From Raja brachyura (taxonomy: Eukaryota): a stretch of DNA of 64,000 bases. Of the stretch, positions 2,623-59,225 are shown piece by piece. The stretch lies in assembly GCA_963514005.1 (NCBI GenBank), contig OY740792.1, forward strand, positions 35,960,001 to 36,024,000. Reading direction: 5' to 3'. The notes below the pieces were generated by a model that saw only the letters and a program-made list of their open reading frames with translations, was not told the origin of the DNA and made no database searches. How positions within the stretch are numbered: the stretch's first letter is position 1; each line of letters begins with the position of its first letter. A program made the position numbers and the translations under genes.

Positions 2623-3991
2623 CTGAAAATGAGAATTTCAAACATGAAAAAACAATATTGGCAAATGCTGCTATTTCAATTATCTTTATTTCTAAATTTG
2701 GACAAGCAGCTTTATTTTCCTGTGAAGCAATCACAACTTAATCAAACACCATTAAACAATATCTATCCTCCAGTTGTTGTTCTTCTACCTTGAATCAATT
2801 ATTAATTACTATATACAGTGTGCTCTGCAGGAAGTCACCACAAGAGTGGTAAACAGAACTTCTCTTACCTGCTACCTCTCCTGTCTAGGACCTGCAGTAG
2901 GTGCCCGAAAACAGCAAATCCCTTCAAGTTATAGTCTGTTGAAACTGGGAAATAAACTGCTGTCATTGACTAAATGACAATATGATTATGTAGTTTCCCC
3001 GTAGAGTTATAGTCATAGAGGATAGAAACAGGTTCTTCGGGCCAACTCGTTCATGCCGACCAAGATGCCCCATCTTTTGGTTTAGAAATACAGCCTGGGA
3101 ACAGGCCATTCAGCCCACCGAGTCCGCGCCAACCAACGATTGAATTCATTTTCCCAGTTTCGGATCCTACACACTCGGGTAATTTAGAAGTCAATTCACC
3201 TACAAACGCTGTATGTTTTCGGAATGTGAGCGAAACTCGAGCACTTGTAGAAAATCCACATGATCACATGGAGAACGTGCAAACTCTGTACAGACAACAC
3301 CCGTAGTCTGGATCTCTGGCACTGGAAGGCAGTAACTCTTCCACTACGCCACTGTCCCATTTAACTGGTCCCATATCCTCTAGACTTTTTCTATCTAGTT
3401 CCTAAAGTCCCTTTAGACTTTTCCTATCCATGTACCTGTCCAAGTGTCTTTTAAATGCTGTTATAGTACTTGCCTCATCTCCCTCTTCCGGCAGCTCGTT
3501 TGTGTATATCCACCACCCTCTGTGTGAAAATGTTGCCCCTCAGGTTCCTATTAAACCTTTCCTCTCTCACCTTAAACCTATGTCCACTGGTTCTTGATTC
3601 CCCTACTCCGGGTAATATAGACTCTGTGCATTCATCCTATCCCGTCATGATTTTATACACCTCTACAAGATCACCTCTTAGCCTCCTGCACTCCAAGGTA
3701 TAATGTCCTAGCGTGCCCAACTTCTCCCGATTGCTCAGGTTCTCAGTGCTGGCAACATCCTAGTTAATCTTCTCTACACTCTTTCCAGCTTAATGACATC
3801 CTTCCTATAGCAGTGTGACCAGAACAAAGCACAATGCTTCAAAATGCTTCAAATGTGGAAGAAACAGTACAAAATGAACTTGTCAAAGCAATGAATGATG
3901 GCAATAATGGCAATCCTGACTAACAATGCCCTTAATATCAACAACACTAAATTAACACCGTCCTTTCTTTACCTTTGCTCGTGACTATTAC

Positions 3992-5047
3992 CTTTCTCTG
4001 TTGAAGTTGAACAGTCAGTTGGTTGTGTAGTGCTGCTGTTTTCTTGGTTTCCATCTTTCCTGATGCATACTCAAATCCAGGAAAGGCTGTGAGTGTTGCT
4101 TGTTTATGACTTGTTTTTGGATTCTTTGTAGTTATGCTTTGCTTGACATCCACTGAGTGACTATTGGGCACACTTTGCTCTAATGTGGTATAGATATTTC
4201 CTGCTGCAATACTCACAGAAGCCTTGACATCAATTTGTCTACATGACTCACTTTCCTCATTTGCTGGCTTGTTTGAATCAGATTTATGTGCTGTGAGAAC
4301 AGAACTGGCATCACGTTCAACTTTGGTTGTTTGTTTCCATTGTACATCGTTTTCTGGAGTACATGTTGACTCATTCAGTTGGGATACACTCATTCCATTG
4401 CACTTCTGAGTGCTAAGTGACTTCTCATTTGTACTTTTACTGCTTGATGCCTGTCTATCCTTCGCTATGCCCATTTTCACATGTGCGGCGTTTCCATGAT
4501 GAGACAAACTATTCAATGATCCTTTATGGACATACTTCACCTCAGATTCTAATGATATCTTATCCTCTGCTATGTGTGATACCTTTGAAACCTTTCCTCT
4601 ATCATCTGGCAAGGGATCACCTGGCAAATTGTGATTTCTGCCAGAGTCAATGCCACCTATTCTGGCATCACACTTAAGATGAGGCCTTGTTTCTTTCTGA
4701 GTCTTTTCAAAGTCCTTAATATGAGGTTTTTCACCCTCATCACATAACCTTTCACTGATGTTGAGCCCATTAGAAGACTTCTTTGTTGCTTTCTCGTTGT
4801 ATGTTGGTGGTGACCCACCCAAACCAACCGATTCATCCACATCTTTATTGTGTTTCCCATCTGATTCAGGTTCAGCACCTTGTTTACTGTTGCTATTAGT
4901 AGTAATAGTAGTAGTACAGAGAGTAGGCTGCTTCTGATTCTTGGCTGGTATTCTAAAAGGATTTCGCTGTTGATTCTCAGAAACTAGGGACTGCTGTGTA
5001 TCCTGATGGCCATCTCTATTAGTTGATGAAATCTTTGGATTTGACAC
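3992..5047 (-). CDS. TTF2: TTF2 coding exon 5 (large low-complexity exon, 352 codons, ending LTVQLQQRK)
   Basis: ORF 3947..5047; tttcag|GTG acceptor, AAG|GTAATA donor; 1056 nt, phase 0-0. Confidence 0.9.
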
Positions 5048-5314
5048 CTGAAAAGCAAATATACATACATATTTTTTTTAATGAAAACTGGCATGTTAAT
5101 TGAAAACCAATTGTGGAATACCACTTTTGCATCCCTTCTTCATTAAAGTGATGCATGTCAAAGCCAGAAAAAACATCTTCCATTCCCATATCTTATACAG
5201 CCATCAATTTCTCTCAGGACAGGAGAGACAAATTGAAACACTGACGACATTTGAAAAGAAAATCTCCAAAGAATCCAAAACTTAAATTAAGAATCAGAGT
5301 ATGAACATCCATAC

Positions 5315-7883: not shown

Positions 7884-10809
7884 CTGAGAGAAACAAGAGA
7901 ATATGATCAAAAAAGTAGCAAAGGTAAAGAAATCAAAGGAAGTCTTGATCCTCGATCAAAGATACAGCGTGGAAACAGGACCTTCAGCTCACCACATTCA
8001 CCCCTACCAGCGATTCCCATACACTGCATTATCCTACACACAAGGGACAATTTACAATTTTCACTCATTCGCACTAGTTCTGTTACCGCACTTTCTCATC
8101 AACTCCCTACACACTAGGGAGCAATATACAGAGGCCAATTAATCTACAAACCCACACATCCTAGGAATGTGGGAGGATACCAGACACCCGGAGGAAACCC
8201 ACGTGGTCATAGGAAAAAAGTGCAAACTCCACACAGACAGCACCCGACATCAGGATCACACTCAGGTTTCTGGCGCTGAGGCAGCAGCTCTACCAGCTGC
8301 GCCAGTATGTTGCCCTGAATCAAAAGGAGAGAGCAAACCTTGGTGGATCAAAAGGAGATGGAAAGGAGCACAGGGATGGCATTTTATTTGAAATTGGAAC
8401 AGTTAATGTTCACACCATTAGGCAAGCCTACCCTGACAGAATACGAGGTATTGGTTTTCCAGTTTGTATTTGGTCTCACGTTGGCAGTGGAATAGACCAC
8501 AGACATGTCTGTGTGAGAATGGGGAGGGAGTTTAAAATGGCATACAACCAAGTGCACAGTGGGCACACGGCAGGCAACGTGTCGCAGCAGGTAGAGCTGC
8601 TGCCTCAAAGCGCCAGAGACCCGGGTGCTGTCTATGTGAAGATATGTTTTCTCTGTGACCGTGTTGGTTTCCTCTGGGCATGCCGGATTCCTCCTACATC
8701 CCAAAGACAGGCGGGTTTGTAGGTTAATTGGTCCTCTGTAAATTTTCCCCAGTGTGTTGGGAGAGGATGGGAAAGCAAGATGACATAGACCAACAATTAA
8801 TGTGTGGTATGGAGTCAGTAGGCCGAAGAGCCTATTTCTAACACTGTATCTCTAAACTAAACGTAGAGCACACGGAAAATAGTCACCTAGTGTATGCTTG
8901 GTTTCGCCGATGTAGAGGAGGGCACATTAAGAGGAGTGAAGTTGTAGAGATGCATAAAGCCAAGAGAATAGGTAGAATGAATGCATAGCATCTTTTATCC
9001 AGAGTAGGGGAATCAAAAACCAGAGGACATAGGTTTATGGTGAGAGATTTTATAGGAAATTGCGGGGCAATTTTTCATGCAGAAAGTGGCAGGTAAATGG
9101 AATGAGCTGCCAGAGGTCATTGGGGCGGGTACAACAACAACAATTAAAAGACATTTGGACAGGTACATGGATAGGAAAAGTTTGGAGAGATATGGACCAA
9201 ACGCAGGCAAATTGAACCAGTATGGCTGGGGCATACTGTTCCGCATTGACGAGATGGGTCGAAGGGCCTGTATTCGTGCTGTATGACTTCATGACTCCTT
9301 CTTTTATGTTTGACCACACACCAGAAGTAATACGCAGCAGCGATTAGCGTCATAAATATACTATTCAAATACATTATGAGATTAAAGATGTCTTCCTGTA
9401 ATCACACACAACTTGGCGAAACCAGGCATGGTATATCGCAAACAGTTACACTATCCTTACTGAAAATGGGTTTACTTGCTATAGAGGCAGTGCAGCAAAG
9501 ATTCACCAAACTGGGAGATTAGGTTTGTTACATAAAATTAGTTTAAGTTAGGGGAAACTTGGGATCTTGAGCAAAACACATAATGCTGGAGGAACTCAAT
9601 GGGTCAGGTAGCATTTGTGATGGGAATGGACAACCTTTCAGGTCTGGAATCAGTCTGAAGGGTCTCGACCTGAAACGTCACCAATTCCTTCTCTCCTTAG
9701 ATGCTGCCTCTCCTGCTGAGTTAGTCCAGCATTTTGTGCTTACTTTCAGCTCTGGACCGTCTTTCAGACTGTCTGAAAACTCAGGAAACCAACAAACATC
9801 TTGCTGAAGGCAGACCAGAAGCCAATTGAGAAACAAGGAACTGCAGATGCTGGTTTACAAAAAAGGACACAAAATGCTGGAGTAACTCAGCAGGTCAGGC
9901 AGCATCTCAGGACAACATGGATAGTTAACGTTTCAGGTCAGTACTCTTCTTCAGATTGGTCTGAAGGAAGGTCCCACGTTGTGTCTTTTCCAGATGCCAA
10001 TTGGGTATCTGTTGCACCAAATTTACACCAACATACCTGCATCATTCCTAAAATAAAATCTTAAAACTGGCCCTGGTGGAATTTCAGAGGTTTTGGACCT
10101 CAGCAACTGAAGCCAGGTAGGGAAGGGAAGGTGCAGCCACAGGTCAAGGACATCATCAAAGACCCACACCATCCTTGCCACACTCATTTCACCATTGCCA
10201 TCGGGAATAAGGTACAGGAGTCTGAAAACTGTGACGTCCAGGTTCAGGAACAGCTTCTTCCCTGCAGCCATCAGGCTGTTAAACACAACAACGAATAAAC
10301 TCTGAGCTCTGAACTGGAAAAGACTATTATTATTGCCTTATATTTGTTACTTATTGAACTTTTTCCTCTTCCCCCGTTATGTACTATGTTTACATATTCA
10401 CATATTCTGTTGTGCTGCAGGAAGTAAGAATTTAATTGTCTCATCCGGGACATATGACAATAAAACACCCTTGACATCAGTTGGTAGACAAAAATGCTGG
10501 AGAAACTCAGCGGGTGAAGCAGCATCTATGGAGCGAAGGAAATAAGCGACGTTTCGGGCCGAAACACTACTTCAGACATTAGTTGCACCGTTTTTTACAC
10601 CAACATAGTTGCGCCTAAAACATCTAAAACATAGTCATAAAACTACCCTTGGTGGAATTTCAGAGGGTTGGGACCTCAGCACCAGAGGGAGGTAGGCCTG
10701 GGAGTGTGGAGGTCCAGGGCTGGAGATGAGATCCCAGCACCATGGTCAACTACATAACTCAATGCACTGAGGGCAGCTGATGATCAAAGATCCTCTTGCG
10801 TGCTATAGG

Positions 10810-11260
10810 TTGCCGACACGTCACATCCGGCGATCGTTATTTAAAACATCGGCGCCGCTTCCTGAGACATCCGCCAGTTACATGCTCACACTTTTAATGT
10901 CCAATACCGCTATTGCCACGTACCGTGCTCCGTGCACATCACCTTCTCCATGGTTGCTTCCAGCTCGGGGACACGGCGCGAGCCACAACTAAAGATGATC
11001 TTTGGCCACAACTTCAAACACCGGCGGCCCAACGGTCACCAGCCCCGCTCGCCGCACCCGCACCCGCACCCGCACCGACGTCACTCTCGTCCAATCAGTG
11101 GCCAGGATGCGGCTGTAGGGCGGGACCAAACCCCGGCCTCCACGTCGCTCTCGGTGAGCGACGGCCACGAGCACCAATCAGAATATGAGACGAGCAGCGG
11201 GGGCGGGGCGATGCGGGGCGGGGAGAGGTGAGCTGTCCATCCACCCCCCCCCCTAAAACA
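10810..11260 (-). promoter_or_regulatory. CpG-rich TTF2 promoter/5' UTR region
   Basis: High CpG density against an AT-rich background. CCAAT boxes (CCAATCAG at ~11091 and ~11174), GC boxes (GGGCGG at ~11118 and ~11201) and a (GCACCC)n tract upstream of the ATG at 10951. Confidence 0.75.
10924..10951 (-). CDS. TTF2: TTF2 coding exon 1 (MEKVMCTEH-G)
   Basis: Kozak-like gcaaccATGG on the minus strand; 28 nt, then G|GTACGT donor. Resembles the vertebrate TTF2 N-terminus (human MEEVRCPEHG, recalled) and splices in frame to exon 2. Confidence 0.9.
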
Positions 11261-11442
11261 CCAAAGCACTACCTCACCCTAAGATCTCACCTCCAGTGGG
11301 AGGCACTGGAGGTGAGATAGTGTTTTAGTTGTCATTTTGTCCCTGTAACTAAAGTTGTCTTTGTTAGCAAAAAAATGTAAGTTCAGATTATGTTTTAGTG
11401 CTCAATTTTGTACAGGTAACTAGAGTCACCTTTGATTAAAAA

Positions 11443-20569: not shown

Positions 20570-22420
20570 GGAAGTTCATACTTTCACAAAAAGAGAGAAC
20601 AGCAGGCCATGCTGAACTGTTAAGACTAAACGCAAAATGGGTAATTGAGAAGACAATCAGAGAATCACAAGAGTTTGTATCAAATATATTTACAAAAAAC
20701 AAAAAAGATGGCGGTTGACACATCATTATAGATTTGACCGAACTAAATACTTCCGTTCAGTATGCCCAATTCAAAAAGGATACGTTTGTCACAGCCAAAC
20801 AGCTAATTTCTGATAGGTACTACATGGCTTGCATCGATCTAAAGCCAGTATAAAACAGCCTGGGTGCTGATGACAACCCATTGGGTAAGGCCTTATATTG
20901 CCATAGCTGTCCCATCCAGACAAATTTCAGGTATTTACGATGATCCTTGTGTATTGGTACTCAATAGTATGCATCTTTTAGATCGATACACAAGGATCAT
21001 CGTAAATACCTGAAATTTGTCTGGATGGGACAGCTATGGCAATATAAGGCCTTACCCAATGGGTTGTCATCAGCACCCAGGCTGTTTACAAAATTGTTAA
21101 AACCAGCTTTAGCATACTTAAGGAAACATAACCATATTGTCATGGCTTAGCTTGATGATATTCTCATTGTAGGAGAGAATTTGGAGATGGCTACATTGGC
21201 AGTATCAGCCACAAAACATATTTTTCAAAGGCGGGAATTTATCATACATCCAGATAAATCAAAAGTGAAACCCTCCACTACCATGGATTATTTGGGGTTC
21301 ACTATTGACTCTGTTCAAATGTCTATCACCTTGCCACCAAACAAAGTGACAGACTTGACGGAAGCATGTAAAAGCCTCACTGGCATCAGGGAACCATCCA
21401 TTCGGCAAGTAGCCAGAGTGATTGGGAAACTAGTGGCTGCATTTCCAGCAGCACAACTTGGACCACTCCATTACCAAAACCTGCAAAGAGCAAACATTCT
21501 AGCTCTCAAAAATCATGCAGGCCATTTCGATAGGCCTATGAAACTACCAGGGAAAGCTAAATTAGAATTAAACTGGTGGATAGAAAATGCTCAGCGTTGT
21601 TCTAACCCCATCACTATCATGAATCCCTTGGTTACATTACAGACTGATGCCAGTGCTAAAGGTTGGGGAGCAACTAATACCACCACAAGTTGCGGTGGCA
21701 GATGGAGTGCACAAGAATTAACCCTGTTTAAAGCACTAGGGATTAACTAGAAATGCTGGGAGCATTTCATGGACTCATGGCCTTCTGCTCAGATATGCAC
21801 CAGTTGCATGTACGGTTACAAATTGATAATACCACAGTGGTGGCCTATATTAATCATATGGGTGGAATAAAGTTGATATCATGTGATGAATTGGCTAATA
21901 ATATCTGGCACTGGTGTCTGGATAGGGAGATTTGGATCTCAGCCACTTACTTTCCAGGTAAGCTAACTACAGTGGCAGACACCAGGTCACGTAAATTCAA
22001 CGACAACATTGAATGGATGTTGGATCGGAAAGTGCTTACAGATATTATAGAACGGTATGGAACACCAGATATCGACCTTTTTGCATCCAGACTAAATCAC
22101 CAACTACCAACATATGTTGCTTGGGAACCAGCCCCGGGGGCAGCAACGATGGATGCTTTCTCGCTGCATTGGGGGGATTTGTTTTGCTATGCATTTCCCC
22201 CCTTCTGCCTCATCAGTCGGGTCTTATAAAAAATTAAACAAGACTCCGCAACGGGTATTTTGGTTGTTCCCGACTGGCCTACCCAACCATGGTTCCCAGC
22301 GGTACAAAAGATGGCCACAGAACCCTGCATCCGGATCAACAAACGGCCGAGTTTGTTGGTACACCCCGTGACAGGGGAAAGTCATCCGTGCCATGACCGA
22401 ATGAACTTATTGATTTGCAG
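20570..22420 (+). pseudogene. DIRS copy 1 pol: RT, RNase H and adenine-methyltransferase-like domain (disrupted)
   Basis: RT: IDL(KDAY), ALPNGLSSAPRLFTK, A*LDD (catalytic Y changed to stop). RNase H: LQTDAS..GWG, IDNTT, VADTRSR. MT-like: IDLFASRLN..DAF..W..YAFPPF..VVPDWPTQPWF. Confidence 0.9.
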
Positions 22421-24045: not shown

Positions 24046-26639
24046 GAATTATTCTCTGTTCTCTGTTCTATATTAAGTTTATTTTAAATATATTCCTGCA
24101 CTGTTAAAACTGCCCGTGGAATGACTGAGACTCGTGAATTAACAACTATTTAATTGGGAATTTATTTTTAATGCTAGAGATCCAAAGGGTTAATACATTA
24201 CAGTTATGTTTGGTATAAGCAGTTTAATCCTGGATCATTATCCTGTTATTACCTCGAATACAAAGGCAGAGCAATGTTCTGAGGAGACAGTGGCTAGAAA
24301 AACAGCACACCCCCTCCGAGCCTCCCAGGCAGAGGTTGGTGTCTGATCTCATTCTCAAAGACTCCAGCAGTAAGATCGCCCTTCATCCTGCTGCCTTTGA
24401 CATTTTCATCAAACCCTCGCCAATTTGCTACTCTGTTTTCATCCATGCCCAATAATTACAGGAGTTATTCTTAACTCCTGTCAAATCCACTGTGGTAATT
24501 TCAGCTTAATTACCTTGGTTCTTTTCCTGTACTGAGTAGGTAAAATATAAAACCTGTGCACGGTTCAGATAAATGTGTTTAAGAAACTGATACTAGTTTT
24601 TATTTAATATTGAAGCATTAATGAATCTGATCAAAGACAACACCCTTTTAGCAGCTGGAGTATTTAACATGTCAGTAAATGGTCGCTCTGGGTTTGGTTG
24701 ATTCTAGAATTGATTTTACATGATTCGTGTGGAAGATTGGATTAGAGGGTATTAGCTATAAGCAGAGGTTAGAGAAACGTGGATTGTTATCCCTGCCTCA
24801 CTTGGCCTAGGCACCTCATTTGTAGATGGACTTCCGGGGGGGATTTCAAGTGTATTCCCGTAATTTTGTTCGAATTAAATGAGATGCCGGACCATCAGTT
24901 GATGGGAAATCGGTGATGGACCCACAACAGGGAGAAGGCAGGAGAATGTGGTTGAGAGGGAAAAATAGCTCAGCCACTATCAAATGGCAGAGCAGACTTG
25001 ATGAGCCGAATGTTCTCATTCTGTTTTTATATCTTATGATGTGCATTATACCACTGAATAGTAGCTGGTCATGGAATTTCAAGAATTGACCAGGTTTGAG
25101 CCAAGTATAGAGGGTTATATAAAGGTTAATTGATTTAATTGACTAAATTAATCCCATTTAATCACAAATATCTTTATCATAGTAGGACATTTCTATCCTT
25201 TCAATATCACTGTAGTCTGTTGTAATTATAAGAGTTAATTTTTGTTTCTGTATATTAGTCAGACGGTGGTATTTAAATAGATCTGAGTGTTAAAATAGCC
25301 CAGGCTTTGTTTATTCTCAAGTAGTCAGTAAGTTTCCAATTTATTCTTCCACTTACCTGCATCTTCTTCTGCTGCTCGCATCCGATAGAAAGTTCAGAAG
25401 CTTGAAAGTGCACAGCATCAGACTCGGGAACAGCAGAGCCCATTCAGTGGCTTCCATTGAAAATTATTCTGTGATCCCCATGATCCCAGTAAATCAGAGT
25501 TGATCTGGAGACACAAATAACTACAGACAGTGGTCTACAAAATAGACACAAACTGTTGGGAGTAATTTACTGGGTCAGGCAGCATCTCTGGAGAGCATGG
25601 ATGGGTGACGTTTCGGGTCGAGACCACAATCCCTCCCACCGCAATTGGTCTAAAGAAGGGCCCTGAATTGAAATGTCACCTATCTGTCTTCTCCAGAGAT
25701 GCACCCTGACTCTCTGAGTTACTCCAGTGCTGTGTGTCTATTTTTTTATCTTTCATAAGTTTAAAAGACATAGGAGCAGAATTACACCATTCGGCCCATT
25801 GAGACTGCTCCTCCATTCAATCATGGCTGATCTATTTTTCTCACTGAACCCCATTCTCTTGCCTTCTCTCCGTAACTTTTGACACCCTTAGTAATCCAGA
25901 CCATATCAATCAATCTAAAATATAAAAATACCCAATGCTAGCCTCCACCATTGTCTGTGACATGCTTTGACTAAAGAAATGTCTCCTCATCTCCATTCTA
26001 AAGGTACGTCTTTTTATTCTGAGGCTGTGCCCTCCGGCCCTAGACTCTCCCTTTACTGGAAAGATCCTCCCCACATCTAGGTACATAGTTGATCTGATTT
26101 ACTCTGCACCATGCCAGCTGAGCTCACCAGGCAAGGCAAATGCTGATGCATCCTGCCACATATGACAGTAGTGTGAAAAAGGGTCCTGACCCACAACGTC
26201 ATCTGTCCATTCCCTCGACAGATCCTGCTGAATGCATCCAGCGCTCTGTTTTGCTCAAGATTCCAGTTCCTGGTGCCCCCCCAAAATGTATAACCATTGC
26301 CTCCTCTCTGGCGCCATAAATCATTGATACTAATCATTGGTTTAAGGAGAGGGGAGAAAGATTTAAAAGGAACCTGAGGAGCAACTTTTTTTTTAAAGAC
26401 AAAGTGTGGAATGAGCTGCTGGAGGAGGTAGTTGAGGTAGGTACTATCACAACATTTGAAAAACATTTGGACATGTAGGATAGGATCGGTTTAGAAGGAT
26501 ATGGGTCAAACACATGCTGGTGAGATTTGTGTAGAAGAGGCAGGTTGGTTGGTATGGGCAAGTTGAGCCCAAGAGCCTATTTCTGTGCTGCACGACTTAA
26601 TGACTTTAGTTCCCAATTACTGGGCTCTCAGACCTCTCC

Positions 26640-36633: not shown

Positions 36634-38044
36634 CTGCAGAAAACAAATACCAAAAAAGATCAGAAACTTGCTTTTAGATTAGTTTAGAAATACAGCATGG
36701 AAACACACCCTTCAGTTTACCAAGTCCACGCCGACCATTGATCACCCGTTCACACTACCGCAATGTTATCCCACTCTCTCATCCACACCCTTCATATTAG
36801 GGGCAATCTAGAGGCCAATTAACCTACAAACCTGCATGTCTTTGGGATGTGGGAGGAAACTGGCACATGGAGAATGTGCAAACTTTACACAGATAGCACC
36901 AAAGAAAAGGATTGAACTGAGATCTCTAGCGCTGTGAGGCAGTGCCTCTACCAGCCACACAAATATCAATTTCCAATTTATTTCCTGTCATTCTCGTTAT
37001 GCTAGTTGATATTTATTTCCCGTCACTAAATTATGAGGCACACACTGTGCCAAAGACAACTCCTTTGTTCTAACTAAAAAACATACTGAGAACAGCACTC
37101 TGCCGCCTCGGCATGTCTTTCATCCAAGGCATTTGAAAGATTATCACCTTGTGATCCGATGGGGGAAAAATAATCAAGAAGGCAAATGTTACTCTGAAAT
37201 TGGTGAAGAGCTCCTGAATAATTATTATCTTTAATTTGAGTTTCCTCCAGGTACAGAAGATTCATTTCATCGGCAGCTAGCATTTAAAAAGGGTAGAGTT
37301 ACCATAATGTTCTACTCTTTGACATAAACCACGTTATTCTGATTTAGCTGCCTTAACAACTCACAAGAAACTGGGTTACAATTATGAGTATATCCTTTCT
37401 AATTGTGAAGAAGGATTATCCCCACAGAAATGGCATAGTCAATTTTCTTACACTGTTTCACGAGACATCCTATTTATTTCTAGCATTTTCTGCTTTCATT
37501 TCAGACGCAGTCTTTTAGGCTTTCTCTCCCAGCAACCGCACAAAAATGCCTTCATTTAAACTAAATCCAAATTGGTAACAAGGCTCATATTCCCAAAATA
37601 AACGTAGTATTTATATTCTGCACTCTCTTTCATTTCCCTCCACCTATTGTACTTGAGTGCGGTTTGAGTGCATTTATGCATGCTATTATCTGGTTTGATT
37701 GGGTAGCATGCAGAACAGTTTTTCACTGTACGCGTGGCAATAATCAATCTAAACCAAGATAATATGATGCAAATAAGAGTCTAGAACCAGAGGGCGTAGC
37801 CTTAGAATAAAATGATGTACCTTTAAAATGGAGATGAAGAGGAATTTCTTTAGCCAGAGGATTGTGATTCTGTGGAATTCATTGCCACAGATGGCGGCGG
37901 GAGCAAGTCAAAGTTATTGGGTATTTTAAAAGCGGAGATTGGCAGATTCTTGATTAGTAAGGGTGTCAAAGGTTACGGGGAGAAGGCAGGAGAATGTGGT
38001 TGAGAGCAAAAAATAGATCAGTCATAATTGAATAGCAGAGCAGA

Positions 38045-38098
38045 AGGGTGGAAGATTGCAACCTTCACCTGGTCCACCCTGCTTCGACTAATGCAATC
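38045..38098 (+). ncRNA. Predicted minimal HDV-like self-cleaving ribozyme (54 nt)
   Basis: P1 AGGGTGG/CCACCCT, P2 GATTGCA/TGCAATC, P3 ACC/GGT, L3 TTCACCT, G after P1', J4/2 CTAA with putative catalytic C38088. Folded by eye. Confidence 0.75.
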
Positions 38099-38182
38099 AA
38101 CCCGACGTGCACAAACAAATAGATCAAATAGAACAAGTTGACTTGCAACTTTAGGCTGTGCACGCTATACGCAAGGAGAAGA
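38045..38182 (+). mobile_element. ~138-bp non-autonomous retroposon with an HDV-like ribozyme head and (AAG)n-type tail, copy 1
   Basis: 11-bp TSD AGCAGAGCAGA (38034-38044 / 38183-38193); homologous to 57979-58112; inserted in a CR1 3' UTR. Confidence 0.85.
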
Positions 38183-38710
38183 AGCAGAGCAGACTCAATG
38201 GGCCAAATGGCCTAATTCTGTTCCTGTGTCTTATGATCTTATGATGAATAAAATGGAAAAGCTGATGAATACACACTTTTCATGCAGTGTGTGGCTCAAT
38301 ATCGGGTACACTTTCAAGTCACTTTGTCTTGGGTGGTTGAGAGAATGTGCGGTGATTGATGCCATGGTGTTGCAGAACAAACAGGCGAAAGAGTATCAAA
38401 AGTAGCTGTTATTGAATCCCACGCTACTGGGTTTTGTACTCGACAAAGAATGAGTTCATTTTTTGATGACCAAAAGAAATGTGAAACTGAAGTACAGGTT
38501 TTAAATTGCACACCTCTATGAACTGCCCTGGGGCACTTTCCCCCCCACAAAAAAACATTAACAATGCTGTAGAACTGCCAACTCCAATAGCTGCACATCT
38601 GTCACCTGCTGTAACTTGCATTTATCTAGCACCTCAAACACTGAAAGTTGCCCTGAGGAATTTCACAGAAGTATAATGTTGGTGTATATAGCTTTATAGG
38701 ACGTTGGTTC

Positions 38711-49557: not shown

Positions 49558-51439
49558 CTGTGAGAGGTTACAGAAAATTTTAATTTAATTAATAGGAAGT
49601 TTGATTGCTCAAGTTTTATTATTATTCAATCTGGTGGGAAATTCTGCAAATGATGCTGGGCAGGCTAAGTGGAAAATTAGACTTCCTCAGCATCCAGCTA
49701 GGTTTGGATTAGTTGTGTTTGGTTTAGGTGAAGCCCATCAACGCATCTAGTTTGTGGAGCTTTGGTATGTCGATGAATGCATTCTTGGACTTATAAAGGT
49801 GTACAGTAGGGAGTATATTGACTGATTGTGTCACAGCCTGTTTCAGCAATTCGAACGCCCAGGAACAAAAGAGGTTACAAATGGGGTGGACACTGCCTTG
49901 TCCATCACGGGTACTGACCTCCACACCATCAAAGGGATCTATAGGAGGGGCTGCTTCAAAAAGGCAGCCAGCTTCATCAAGGACCCACACCATCAGGAAG
50001 AAGGTACTGGAGCTTGAAAACCATGACCTCCAGGTTCAGGAACATCTTCTTTACAGCAACCATCAGGCTCTTGAGCACTACGAATGCCAACTAAACTCCA
50101 AACTACAAACTGCCTTATTTTCACTAGGAACTTCAGGCTTTGTTTTTGTCCTATATTGTTTTGTCTTAATTGACTGATCTTCGTTTTGTTGTTTATTATG
50201 GTATCTATTGAGCAGTATTTGAGCTGCTGCAAGTAAGAATGCCATTGTTCTGTTTTGGGACACATAACAATAAAACATTTTTGACTATTACGGTATTGTA
50301 TTAGTTTATAGCCGAGCTGACCACCAGTATTCATTGTTATACTCAATGTTCTCACTTTGGGGACCTAACAAAAGTGGATGTTGGTTCTTGGTTCAGATGG
50401 AAATATATAAATTTCTTGTCATACACATCAGAGTACAATGTAATTCCTTGTTTGCATGAAGCTCATTAAGTTCACAGTAAAAATAGTAATGATAGAAACA
50501 ACTATAAATAAAATGACAAATGCGGACACGGCAGAACGGTGCAAAGATTGTAGTGCAAGAAGTTAAACAATACTAACATGCAATAGCGGAATGAGGTCGG
50601 GTCAAGAGCAAGTGAATCTGCCAGCACCTCAATGAAAGGGGAGTGGAAGGCTGACGCAAGACCTGCGGGTTTGGAGGTTAAACGGCCTCTGCAAATTGCC
50701 CCCAGTTTTCAGGGAGTGGAGAGAGTTTTGAGGGAGGGAACAGATCTCGTGTGAATGGGTGATCGATGGTCAGCATTGACTCAGTGGGCCGTTTGCAAGT
50801 TGTGTCTTTAAACTAAACTAAGCTACAGACAAAGTATAATCACCCCGAGGCTGAATCATTCAGTTTAGTTGACATGCAAATCAAAAGAGGCAACTGCTCA
50901 CGGCAAGTCCACTCGGGTGTAATGGTCACAAAATTGAAATTGAGCACCAGAGCATTTTCTGGCATATTACAATTCCATTAACACTGCAAATAACTCTGAA
51001 ATCCTTAGATGATAATAACTAGGACTTAAATTGTAATTAGTCGGATTAATCTGATGTCTTCTGCCAGGAAACAAGATCTGCAATAGCTTTTGAATCTTCA
51101 TTTAAGGCAAGAAAAAAGGACAATTTCAGAAGGATGATACAGACCACCACCCATCATGGAGCAAGGCAAGACAAGTGCGCAACACTATCTGCTCTTTTCT
51201 CAATACTAGCAGAGCCATCAGAAATCAATTGTGCAGATTAACGGCAAGTGCAGTAAGAACTCAGTGGGTCAGGCAGCATCTGTGGAGGGAATGGACAGAT
51301 GAAGTTTCAGATCGGGATCTTTGGTCCGACCGAATCATCGCCTGTCCAATTCCCCCTGCAGATGCTGCCCGACCCATTGACTTACTCAGCAGTTTGTATT
51401 TTCTTGTTGGATTATCAAGGTAGATGTGTGGGAGCATCT

Positions 51440-52326: not shown

Positions 52327-52734
52327 CTGGTCGCTGTACGGTGACGTAGGTCATCCCCGACATGTTGATTCCAACTTTATACCAGTTGTTGTTGGGACTC
52401 AGCAGCCATTCCTGCACCAGGCAGTAGTATTTGCCACTGTCATCGACGTCAGCCTTGTGTATGACCAAGGTATAATGGCCACTGGAAGGCTTTGCTGCCT
52501 GCAGTCTCTCCTTCCTCTCGTGCCCTAACAACTCGTTGCCGTATTCGAACATGCAATCCCGGTTTGATCTCAGAATCAGCCTGTCCGCTTCCTCTTGGGA
52601 GCGTTGAACATACCACTGGACAGAAAATTGAGAGTCAGAGCCGGTTTGGTTTGTGATGACACAGCTCAGGCGAATACTGTCATTCTCCGTCACCAGCAAG
52701 TTCCGCTTTAGTTGGCTGACTTCTAGTCTTGCAT
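52327..52734 (-). CDS. EWI-family Ig gene (IGSF3/CD101-like), V-type Ig exon A
   Basis: cacag|AT acceptor, G|GTATTC donor; 408 nt, phase 1-1; LSC..W..DSGKYYCLVQEWL Ig-V signature. Confidence 0.9.
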
Positions 52735-52802
52735 CTGTGAAGACAAACAATGCACTGGTCACTGGCATGACAAAAGTGAACAAATTTTATGAATAATAAA
52801 TT

Positions 52803-56975: not shown

Positions 56976-57648
56976 GGAACTGATGCGCTACAAAGCTGAG
57001 AACTATATTCAGCACTCTGTATCTTCCCCTTTACTCTATCTATTGTACTTGAGTTTGGCTTGATTGGCAGAAGATCTGAAGGTGTTTGGCTGATCGGGAG
57101 TTCAGAATTGGAGCAAAAAAGCAAAGTGCTGCCAGGACCAAGTGGGTCAGGCAGCATCTATGTAGCGGATGGACAGATGACATTTTATATCAGGTTGATG
57201 GAGTAGGGGGAAAATGCTGGAAAAGAGAGATGGCGCTGGACAAAGCCTGGAGAATGACAGGTGGATACAGGCGAGGGGCACCTGGGGGGAAATTGGTGGA
57301 CTGGGAGATTGGTGGAGTCTGACAAAGGCTAGAGATGAAAATGAGACCAAAGGGCATCAGATAGGAGAGATGAGGAGGAATGGGAGGGGGGGGGGGGGGG
57401 AATAAATGGGAAGGTGGGACTCAGGGATAGGAGATGAGTGTCAGACTGAGGTCAGTCTGAAGAAGGGTCCTGACCCGAAAACATCACCTATCCATGTTCT
57501 CCAGAGATGCTGCCTGACCCGCTGAGCTACTCAGCGTTTGTGTCTTTTTGTGGTGTGTCAAAGTCTGGATTTCACGTAAATTTCTCCAGCTCCTCAAAGA
57601 TTCTTTGTGGTGCTGGTCACAGCTTTCCTGCTCCATCAGGTCTTCTTA

Positions 57649-57875
57649 AGGGCCAGTCCCACTTGGCAATTTTTTCAGCGACTACCGGCATCATTGACTA
57701 ACATATCAGGTCGACGGAAGATTTGCGGCATGATGACGTTTTGACGTGCAGTGTTTTTTCAAGTGTCGCAACATTTTTTTTGTCGCCGCTGGATTTTGAA
57801 ATATTCAAAATCTTTTGCTGACACTGATATGAAGCCGGCAGTCGCCGAAATAAATCGCCAATTGGGACAGGCCCT
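57649..57875. mobile_element. PIF/Harbinger-type MITE
   Basis: ~42-bp imperfect TIRs AGGGCC(A/T)GTCCCA..CCGGC; TTA on both flanks (57646-57648, 57876-57878). Confidence 0.8.
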
Positions 57876-57978
57876 TTAGTCTCCCAATATAGGCAGCTAG
57901 GACCCAGTCTTGACAACATTTTGTTGTTTCTGAACAAGGAGCTTTTATTCAAATAATCACACTCACAAGAACTGGAAA

Positions 57979-58032
57979 GGGGTGGGAGATTGCAACCTTC
58001 ACCTGGGGCACCCTGTTTCGACAAATGCAATC
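57979..58032 (+). ncRNA. Predicted minimal HDV-like ribozyme, partly decayed copy
   Basis: P1 GGGGTGG/GCACCCT (G1-U wobble, one mismatch), P2 perfect, P3 ACC/GGG (one mismatch), J4/2 CAAA. Confidence 0.6.
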
Positions 58033-58112
58033 AACCCGACGTCCACAAACAAGATCAAATAGAACATGTTGACCTACAACTTTAGGCTGTGCACGCCATA
58101 CGCAAGAAGAAG
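57979..58112 (+). mobile_element. ~134-bp non-autonomous retroposon with an HDV-like ribozyme head and (AAG)n tail, copy 2
   Basis: 12-bp TSD AAGAACTGGAAA (57967-57978 / 58113-58124); tail ..CCATACGCAAGAAGAAG. Confidence 0.85.
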
Positions 58113-58149
58113 AAGAACTGGAAATATCAAAACTGCCCCAGCAGATTGC

Positions 58150-58465
58150 AAACATCAATCATTCAATCATGATTACACCATTATCAGCATTATCCACGAC
58201 GCACTCGACCTCTCACCCCCTGACCAGCCTTCACGGAAGGCACCGTGGACACCGCGAGTTCCTTCCCCAGGGACACGCGAGCCCAGGCATGGGCCGGGAA
58301 GAAGGGCAGGCAGTCGACTTGGGCAGGAACCCCGACTGCCTGGACCCGTCAATGGCCATGTTGGCCAGGCCCAGGAGCAAACCAACAGGGGCTTCCAAAC
58401 CCTCGCCGACTGACGGACTCTTCCCCCCTCTATATTGAGTGACCAAAGATCAGGAGCGGGGGTTA
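58150..58465 (-). mobile_element. Tx1/L1-clade LINE ORF2 C-terminal fragment
   Basis: Reverse strand reads VGLLLGLANMAI.GSRQ..DCLPFF..ARVSL.KE.AVST..AFREGW; GC-rich. Confidence 0.6.
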
Positions 58466-59225
58466 AACTGCAGTCAATACTGAGGCTGACACTTGCGCAG
58501 TGGTAAAGTTATTGCCTTACAGCGCCAGAGACCCGGGTTTGATCCTGACTGCGGGTGCTGTCTGTATGGAGTTTGCACGTTCTTCGAGTGACCGCATGGA
58601 TTCTCTAGGGTGCTCCGGTTTCCTCCTACATTCCAAAAATGTGCATTTTTTTAGGTTAAATGACTTCTGTGAATTCTGTCCCTAGTGTTTAGGATAGAAC
58701 TGGTGTACAGGATAATTATTAGTCGCAACCTCGATGGGCCAAAGGGCCTGATTCCACGCTGTATATCTAAACTAAACTAAACCTGGGGAGCAGTCCCTTT
58801 AGATACTCAAACAGGGGCATGTCTTGCCAGCATAATGCAACATCTTGTGTAAAATCTGCATTGAAATATAGTGATCAAATAATCTGCTGCCAACCCCTCA
58901 GTGCCCCCAAAGTCTTTGTCAGGAGGTCAGAGAGAGACAATTACTGGGCTGGTGGACTTCCAGGCCCTCTACACCATGGGACACCTCAGCCGGTACCCGA
59001 CATTCTAAAAGAGATTTCACAATGCAACCAGAAATAGCCACTCCAAGCGCAGCATTTGTTGAGAGTGGATGCTGATCTGACGTTTTTTGGAAGAACATTA
59101 CTGATAATGCCACAGGGTTGTCGCCCACTTCAAACCAGCTGAGTGCTGACTACATTCCACAGTGTTGTACATCACGTTGCAATTAAAACCAGGGACTGCA
59201 CAGATGACAGTTCTCAGACAAATGG

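Follow-up and report, generated by a model that had tools for sequence, protein, structure and literature searches.

A candidate short retroelement of skates with a predicted minimal HDV-like ribozyme head, present twice in and around an IGSF3-like gene

The window, by which we mean the whole 64-kb stretch of skate DNA analysed here, carries four minus-strand exons of an IGSF3-like gene. These were matched by mapping onto the window an IGSF3-like protein of Leucoraja erinacea, which shows 96% identity to the window exon translation (the best identity of 10 matches). Protein mapping and splice sites place the exon for residues 673–808, called exon A in the first-pass annotation, at 52328..52735, that for residues 809–945 at 49558–49148, that for residues about 945–1088 at about 46527–46096 and the last coding exon, for residues about 1089–1169, at about 36640–36386, all on the minus strand. 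No exon for residues 1–672 was found within the 64-kb window. Two copies of a short element lie on the + strand. Copy 1 (38045..38182, 138 nt) is inside the last coding intron and copy 2 (57979..58112, 134 nt), which consists of a ribozyme-like head, a short body and a GAA tail, is upstream of the exon for residues 673–808. The protein-mapped exons confirm what had been annotated from the letters, namely that both copies are antisense to the Ig gene and that copy 1 occupies its last intron; copy 2 is intronic, in an intron of more than 11 kb, if the IGSF3-like gene continues past 64000. Elsewhere in the window, an open stretch of 376 codons (3947–5077, −), downstream of the Ig gene and on its strand, probably represents a large exon belonging to a neighbouring gene, and 20853–21087 holds a perfect inverted repeat of 102 nt with 31 nt between its arms, in a region whose open reading frames are DIRS-like in appearance.

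Copy 2 is bounded by a 12 bp direct repeat, AAGAACTGGAAA, at 57967..57978 and 58113..58124 (+), which cannot be extended on either side. Copy 1 is bounded by an unrelated 11 bp duplication (38034..38044 and 38183–38193, +), and the proposal that copy 2 is a second, independent insertion with its own target-site duplication is therefore upheld. The same is true of the shared 5′ start and 54-nt spacing, as both copies begin at position 1 of the predicted P1 helix, directly after the duplication. The body of copy 2 (58033..58103, +), whose 3′ half is presumed to be a LINE-derived tail region, runs into an (AAG)n tail at 58104..58112 (+), which passes into the duplication through 5 nt of microhomology. 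The first 5 nt of the duplication also fit the GAA tail, leaving the 3′ boundary of copy 2 ambiguous by up to 5 nt, and the first 2 nt of the copy 1 duplication likewise fit. Such an overlap of tail letters with both duplications would be expected if the tail pairs with the target and so primes reverse transcription. The window contains exactly two copies of the element, 89.9% identical over 139 nt, and a profile search revealed neither a further copy nor a truncated one there.

Both copies are inserted in repeat sequence for which an unoccupied counterpart could be found. The host repeat of copy 1 has an element-free paralogue at about 24927–25040 which carries the target once. The host repeat of copy 2 (57911..58491, no strand assigned) is tentatively LTR-like, with TG...CA ends and a minus-strand AATAAA at 57944; it is single in the window, has diverged homologues in the genomic runs described below, and has the look of a solo LTR. 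In three of the four mapped runs a contig joins the flanks of copy 2 across a diverged single target, which represents the empty site. Three runs also contain the 3′ junction of copy 2 itself, the differences along about 210 nt numbering 0, 2 and 14, which indicates that the insertion is old and shared. Just upstream of this host repeat, a MITE-like element with 51-nt terminal inverted arms (84%) occupies 57645–57879, and in the right flank of copy 2 a separate depth peak at 58240–58284, seen in all four runs, marks another repeated word.

The first 54 nt of copy 2 (57979..58032, +), from the element start to the end of P2, can be arranged as an HDV-like fold. On the + strand this comprises a 7 bp P1 (57979–85/58008–14), a 2-nt J1/2 between P1 and P2, a 7 bp P2 (57988–94/58026–32), a 3 bp P3 (57995–97/58005–07), a 7-nt L3 (57998–58004) and a P1.1 of one pair, C58000–G58015 (C22–G37), after which a 6-nt linker replaces P4. 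J4/2 (58022–25) begins with C, the cytosine at the C75-equivalent position (58022). In both copies P2 and P3 stand in nested double-pseudoknot order, P1.1 is the single C22–G37 pair, and J4/2 is the catalytic C followed by N-R-A, giving CAAA and CTAA in the two copies. A published descriptor for HDV-like ribozymes fixes two P1.1 pairs (PMC6326823).

The pairing originally described for copy 2 is correct in its details. Position 1 is G opposite U in copy 2 and A–U in copy 1, P2 is perfect (7/7 in both copies), and copy 2 has one mismatch each in P1 (6/7 pairs) and P3 (2/3), whereas P1, P2 and P3 of copy 1 are all paired (7/7 and 3/3 for P1 and P3). The two mismatches are due to substitutions at 58007..58008 (+), by which copy 2 loses the first pair of P3 and the last pair of P1, both of which are present in copy 1 and in the family majority. 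Comparing copy 1 with copy 2 over the 18 pairs, there are no two-sided changes (0/18), one one-sided change, and two pairs broken in copy 2. Thus, of the claim that copy 2 supports both the fold and the boundary, the part concerning the boundary stands and the part concerning the fold does not. Copy 2 adds boundary evidence and no covariation, and support for the predicted fold comes from the family majority instead.

A descriptor of the fold allowing one mismatch each in P1 and P3 matched only the two copies, each at the first base of the element. The same descriptor gave 0 matches in 100 simulated 64-kb windows, and 0.11 per window when P2 was also relaxed; since it was composed after the element had been seen, it is a guard against chance and not a blind test. 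Rfam gave no relevant matches in the window at the gathering score, with the HDV-type model also failing to match, and around the copies, at E values up to 10, no HDV-type family was among the 7 and 4 weak matches. In nested folding, z-scores were not significant for either the head or the 3′ part; pseudoknots are scored neither by this method nor by the Rfam models. The element contains no ORF. With one mismatch allowed, no Pol III A box is present on its sense strand, and B-like words occur only downstream of the head. The lack of A and B boxes in the head speaks against a tRNA-derived (Pol III) SINE. The chimaera and shark SINEs described in PMC5499810 are tRNA-headed families.

To see the element as a family, we turned to genomic sequence runs. 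Of the 22 runs listed, 14 from six organisms contain at least 40% of the sampled words, and four contig runs (organisms A–D) were mapped onto 57880–58300 at 80% likeness; the RNA-labelled runs X15–X20 had small word shares and were outside the mapped set. Each of the four runs gave 10,709–11,330 contigs, nearly all on the element, with depth over the head 4,300- to 6,700-fold higher than over the left flank. In all four, the best-supported 5′ loose end among those listed is 57979 (199, 132, 189 and 149 contigs), which strengthens the 5′ boundary first annotated from two copies. Upstream agreement at this point is 0.35, i.e. the flanks are unrelated. From this modal end and low agreement, the family starts at the predicted cleavage position 1 without a common upstream sequence. 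The 3′ loose ends lie at 58113–58117 and continue in GAA.

The pairs broken in copy 2 are restored by the majority letters, at 91–98% of depth for P3 and 92–98% for P1, where summed contig depth over-weights abundant young sequences, so that these are not per-copy figures. Common variation in the head is of the tolerated kind, with U–A or U·G in P1 and CGAA, CUAA or CAAA in J4/2, and at the catalytic C (58022) the listing, which goes down to 4%, shows no alternative letter in any of the four runs. The family letter counts are unlinked between positions. On this sequence evidence, the family majority has an HDV-compatible pairing scheme with its predicted core intact.

By junction counts alone, each genome has a minimum of hundreds to more than a thousand separate insertions. 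A depth-based estimate of 2–5 × 10^4 copies of the head was distrusted because overlapping contigs inflate depth, and a seemingly weaker CpG decay of the core was set aside on the same grounds. Listed 3′ junctions are about five- to sevenfold more numerous than those at 57979, and the 3′ half of the element is 2.3–4.2 times deeper than the 5′ half, a ratio inflated by overlapping contigs and maybe by mapping bias. Many copies may be 5′-truncated or share only the tail; the 3′ excess could be explained by truncated copies, by truncated partner LINEs sharing the tail, or by mapping bias. In run X3, some joints lead from the tail to 57979 again, which indicates that the element is nested or arranged head to tail at some loci.

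A feature overlooked in the first-pass annotation is position 25 in L3 (58003, +), which is C in both window copies. The U20·G25 reverse wobble of L3 is therefore missing from both (U20/C25), while the family majority has it, with G in 78–89% of summed depth and at least 124–128 contigs per run. The descriptor in PMC6326823 fixes this L3 U·G reverse wobble as crucial. In the antigenomic HDV ribozyme, five of the 16 combinations at this pair are active and 11 are inactive, including U/C (PMC3386971), and a G-to-A change there abolished cleavage in a wasp R2 ribozyme (PMC3774820) and strongly impaired it in a nematode ribozyme (PMC13635239). Since U20/C25 is inactive in the HDV mutants, both copies are probably poor or dead ribozymes, and copy 2 the more so; with C25 and broken P1 and P3 pairs, it probably cannot cleave. 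Copies 1 and 2 also agree in having A at 58072, a position at which T prevails in the family. The simplest reading of these shared letters is that both belong to one C25 subfamily which was still inserted at full length, something that a purely cleavage-defined 5′ end leaves unexplained.

The reading we prefer, with a probability of about 0.75, is that the element is a non-LTR retroelement of skates, non-autonomous and high in copy number, which measures about 135 nt and has a 5′ HDV-like ribozyme and a LINE-type 3′ end with a GAA tail, moved by cleavage and target-primed reverse transcription. The dispersed copies with 11 and 12 bp duplications, the GAA tail and the empty sites are those expected of SIDEs and bipartite non-autonomous LINEs, as is a 5′ end at the ribozyme cleavage position (57979 among the listed ends in all four runs). 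The element would be transcribed by read-through from host promoters or those of neighbouring repeats. The minimal HDV-like head would then cleave just 5′ of G1, as suggested by the fold, the core residues and the modal 5′ end. A partner LINE protein would bind the 3′ end and prime reverse transcription at a nick, with the GAA tail assisting by base-pairing to purine-rich targets. Target-primed reverse transcription would yield the 11–12 bp duplications, for which the products are seen in the window and the enzyme is presumed. Copy 2 would be an old, decayed insertion that has probably lost cleavage.

The partner is somewhat more likely to be a Vingi/Ingi element than an RTE. This slight preference comes from the resemblance to the Vingi-2_Gav 5′ end, judged by eye and not a membership test. 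According to PMC5786205, bipartite derivatives without an ORF have been described only for RTE, Ingi, Vingi and R2. No autonomous LINE partner was found in the window or by pattern scans of metagenomes, prokaryote genomes and viral contigs. The viral contigs gave 74 matches to a 15-mer, none extending past 26 nt, and none to a longer pattern. Metagenomes gave 0 and 10 pattern matches and prokaryote genomes six, and these 16 were treated as chance, as none continues into the P1 and P2 of the element.

It counts against a cleavage-fixed 5′ end that both window copies are full length despite C25. The head might instead be a dual module like trypanosome Pr77, which is both promoter and ribozyme (PMC3383444), with an internal promoter setting the 5′ end at +1, cleavage being secondary and the C25 subfamily spreading at full length. 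That both window copies begin at position 1 and share two family-minority letters (C at 58003 and A at 58072), as in one subfamily, would fit such a module, as would the inactivity of U/C in the HDV series (PMC3386971). The minimal scaffold might, however, tolerate C25, and the G25 form dominates depth, and we regard a dual module as rather unlikely. It is likewise only tentatively that we would entertain a combined case, in which a minimal, theta-sized HDV ribozyme, making up 40% of a ~135-nt vertebrate element present in thousands of copies in skates, is active, and the full-length spread of a G25-less subfamily reflects a second, cleavage-independent job of the fold (promoter, 5′ protection or RT recognition). 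That an ordinary short repeat happens to fit the HDV scheme could be argued from the lack of an Rfam match, the unremarkable stability in nested folding and the absence of covariation between the two copies. Yet Rfam models and nested folding are blind to pseudoknots; all helices, C22–G37 and the catalytic C are present with position 1 at the exact element start, the simulations gave no match at the same stringency, and the majority letters mend precisely the broken pairs and G25. A chance fit is thus very improbable. Even less credible is that copy 2 arose from copy 1 by duplication at the DNA level, with no separate retrotransposition. The copies are 20 kb apart and have two minority letters in common, but their distinct duplications effectively refute duplication, and in addition the flanks are unrelated, similarity ends at the element edges and both hosts have empty sites.

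The suggestion had also been made that sense-oriented self-cleaving inserts may be selected against, sense intronic copies being purged because they cut host pre-mRNA. Both copies are antisense to the IGSF3-like gene (2/2), and purging is plausible in principle for G25-intact copies. With two copies, however, the chance of both being antisense is 0.25, a control tRNA-headed SINE in the same introns has five antisense and three sense copies (eight in all), and an antisense bias is general among intronic retrotransposons (PMC3828378). Moreover, as both copies are probably inactive in either orientation, the window bears nothing on selection against sense cleavers. The suggestion is thus unsupported here, and we think purging an unlikely explanation of the orientations.

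Returning to the reading of the element as a cleaved, non-autonomous retroelement, its close parallels include SIDEs, such as the Drosophila R2 SIDE and R2/R1 SIDE (PMC3414825) and the trypanosome NARTc, RIME and SIDER (PMC4035085). Like these, the skate element is ORF-less and non-Pol III, with a 5′ HDV-like ribozyme fold and a presumed LINE 3′ end, and would be moved in trans; it differs in its vertebrate host, dispersal, length of about 135 nt, GAA tail and 54-nt predicted ribozyme without P4. For the R2 SIDEs, cleavage has been demonstrated (PMC3414825). HDV ribozymes are also carried by metazoan RTE, baggins and SINE elements (reviewed in PMC6765202). Bipartite Vingi and RTE elements (Vingi-1_EE derivatives and RTE-N families; PMC5786205) share the short internal-deletion build and microsatellite tail. 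By eye, the Vingi-2_Gav 5′ end (PMC5786205 supplement) resembles the family majority in helix order, 7-nt L3 and CGAA junction, but has a P4 stem and other helix sequences.

In the fold itself, the skate head is like drz-Mtgn-1 and the theta ribozymes (PMC10879173), which also lack P4 and have a short J1/2 and the catalytic C first in J4/2. In that study, minimal HDV-like ribozymes are about 99% in phages, many beside tRNAs, and the eukaryote set consists of human, mouse and protists. Unlike the theta ribozymes, the skate fold stands at the front of a repeated vertebrate retroelement whose upstream flanks are unrelated. The silkmoth R2 ribozymes (PMC3774820) offer a eukaryotic precedent for the mere loss of P4, being retrotransposon ribozymes in which P4 is likewise absent; these have a J1/2 of 216–498 nt, compared with 2 nt in the skate element, and belong to site-specific autonomous elements. 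The skate head has the missing P4 and short J1/2 of a theta ribozyme, and lies in a skate intron rather than in a phage genome near a tRNA 3′ end.

The mammalian CPEB3 ribozyme has a 7-nt L3 and a single P1.1 pair. It shares this layout and an intronic position with the skate copies, but it is single-copy, sense-strand and has P4, whereas the skate copies are antisense members of a repeat family. The crocodilian Vingi-2_Gav 5′ end (PMC5786205 supplement) closely resembles the CPEB3 ribozyme. On this resemblance, the CPEB3 ribozyme may be a domesticated Vingi head; PMC8233481 has no passage on a transposon origin of this ribozyme.

Ribozyme-plus-tail elements are already known as a kind. In the literature searched we found no report of a minimal-ribozyme element in cartilaginous fish and no precedent for a minimal ribozyme in a vertebrate high-copy element; the repeat libraries (Repbase, Dfam) were outside that search, and the skate family may already carry a name in one of them. 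What makes the finding valuable is the family, with its contrast between G25 and C25, rather than the way in which two copies are oriented, and copy 2 alone is only supporting evidence. If the head cleaves, minimal HDV ribozymes without P4, so far reported almost exclusively from phages, would have a place in a vertebrate genome, where they would be numerous and have an evident function. The element would then also be a tiny RNA template for a protein of the Vingi/RTE type, and proteins of this class now serve in gene insertion (PMC13708176). With thousands of copies that can be dated and carry natural mutations, two open questions would become testable within one genome: whether self-cleavage defines the 5′ end of dispersed retroelements, by comparing the G25 and C25 subfamilies, and whether sense intronic ribozymes are purged, with core-broken copies serving as the internal control for core-intact ones.
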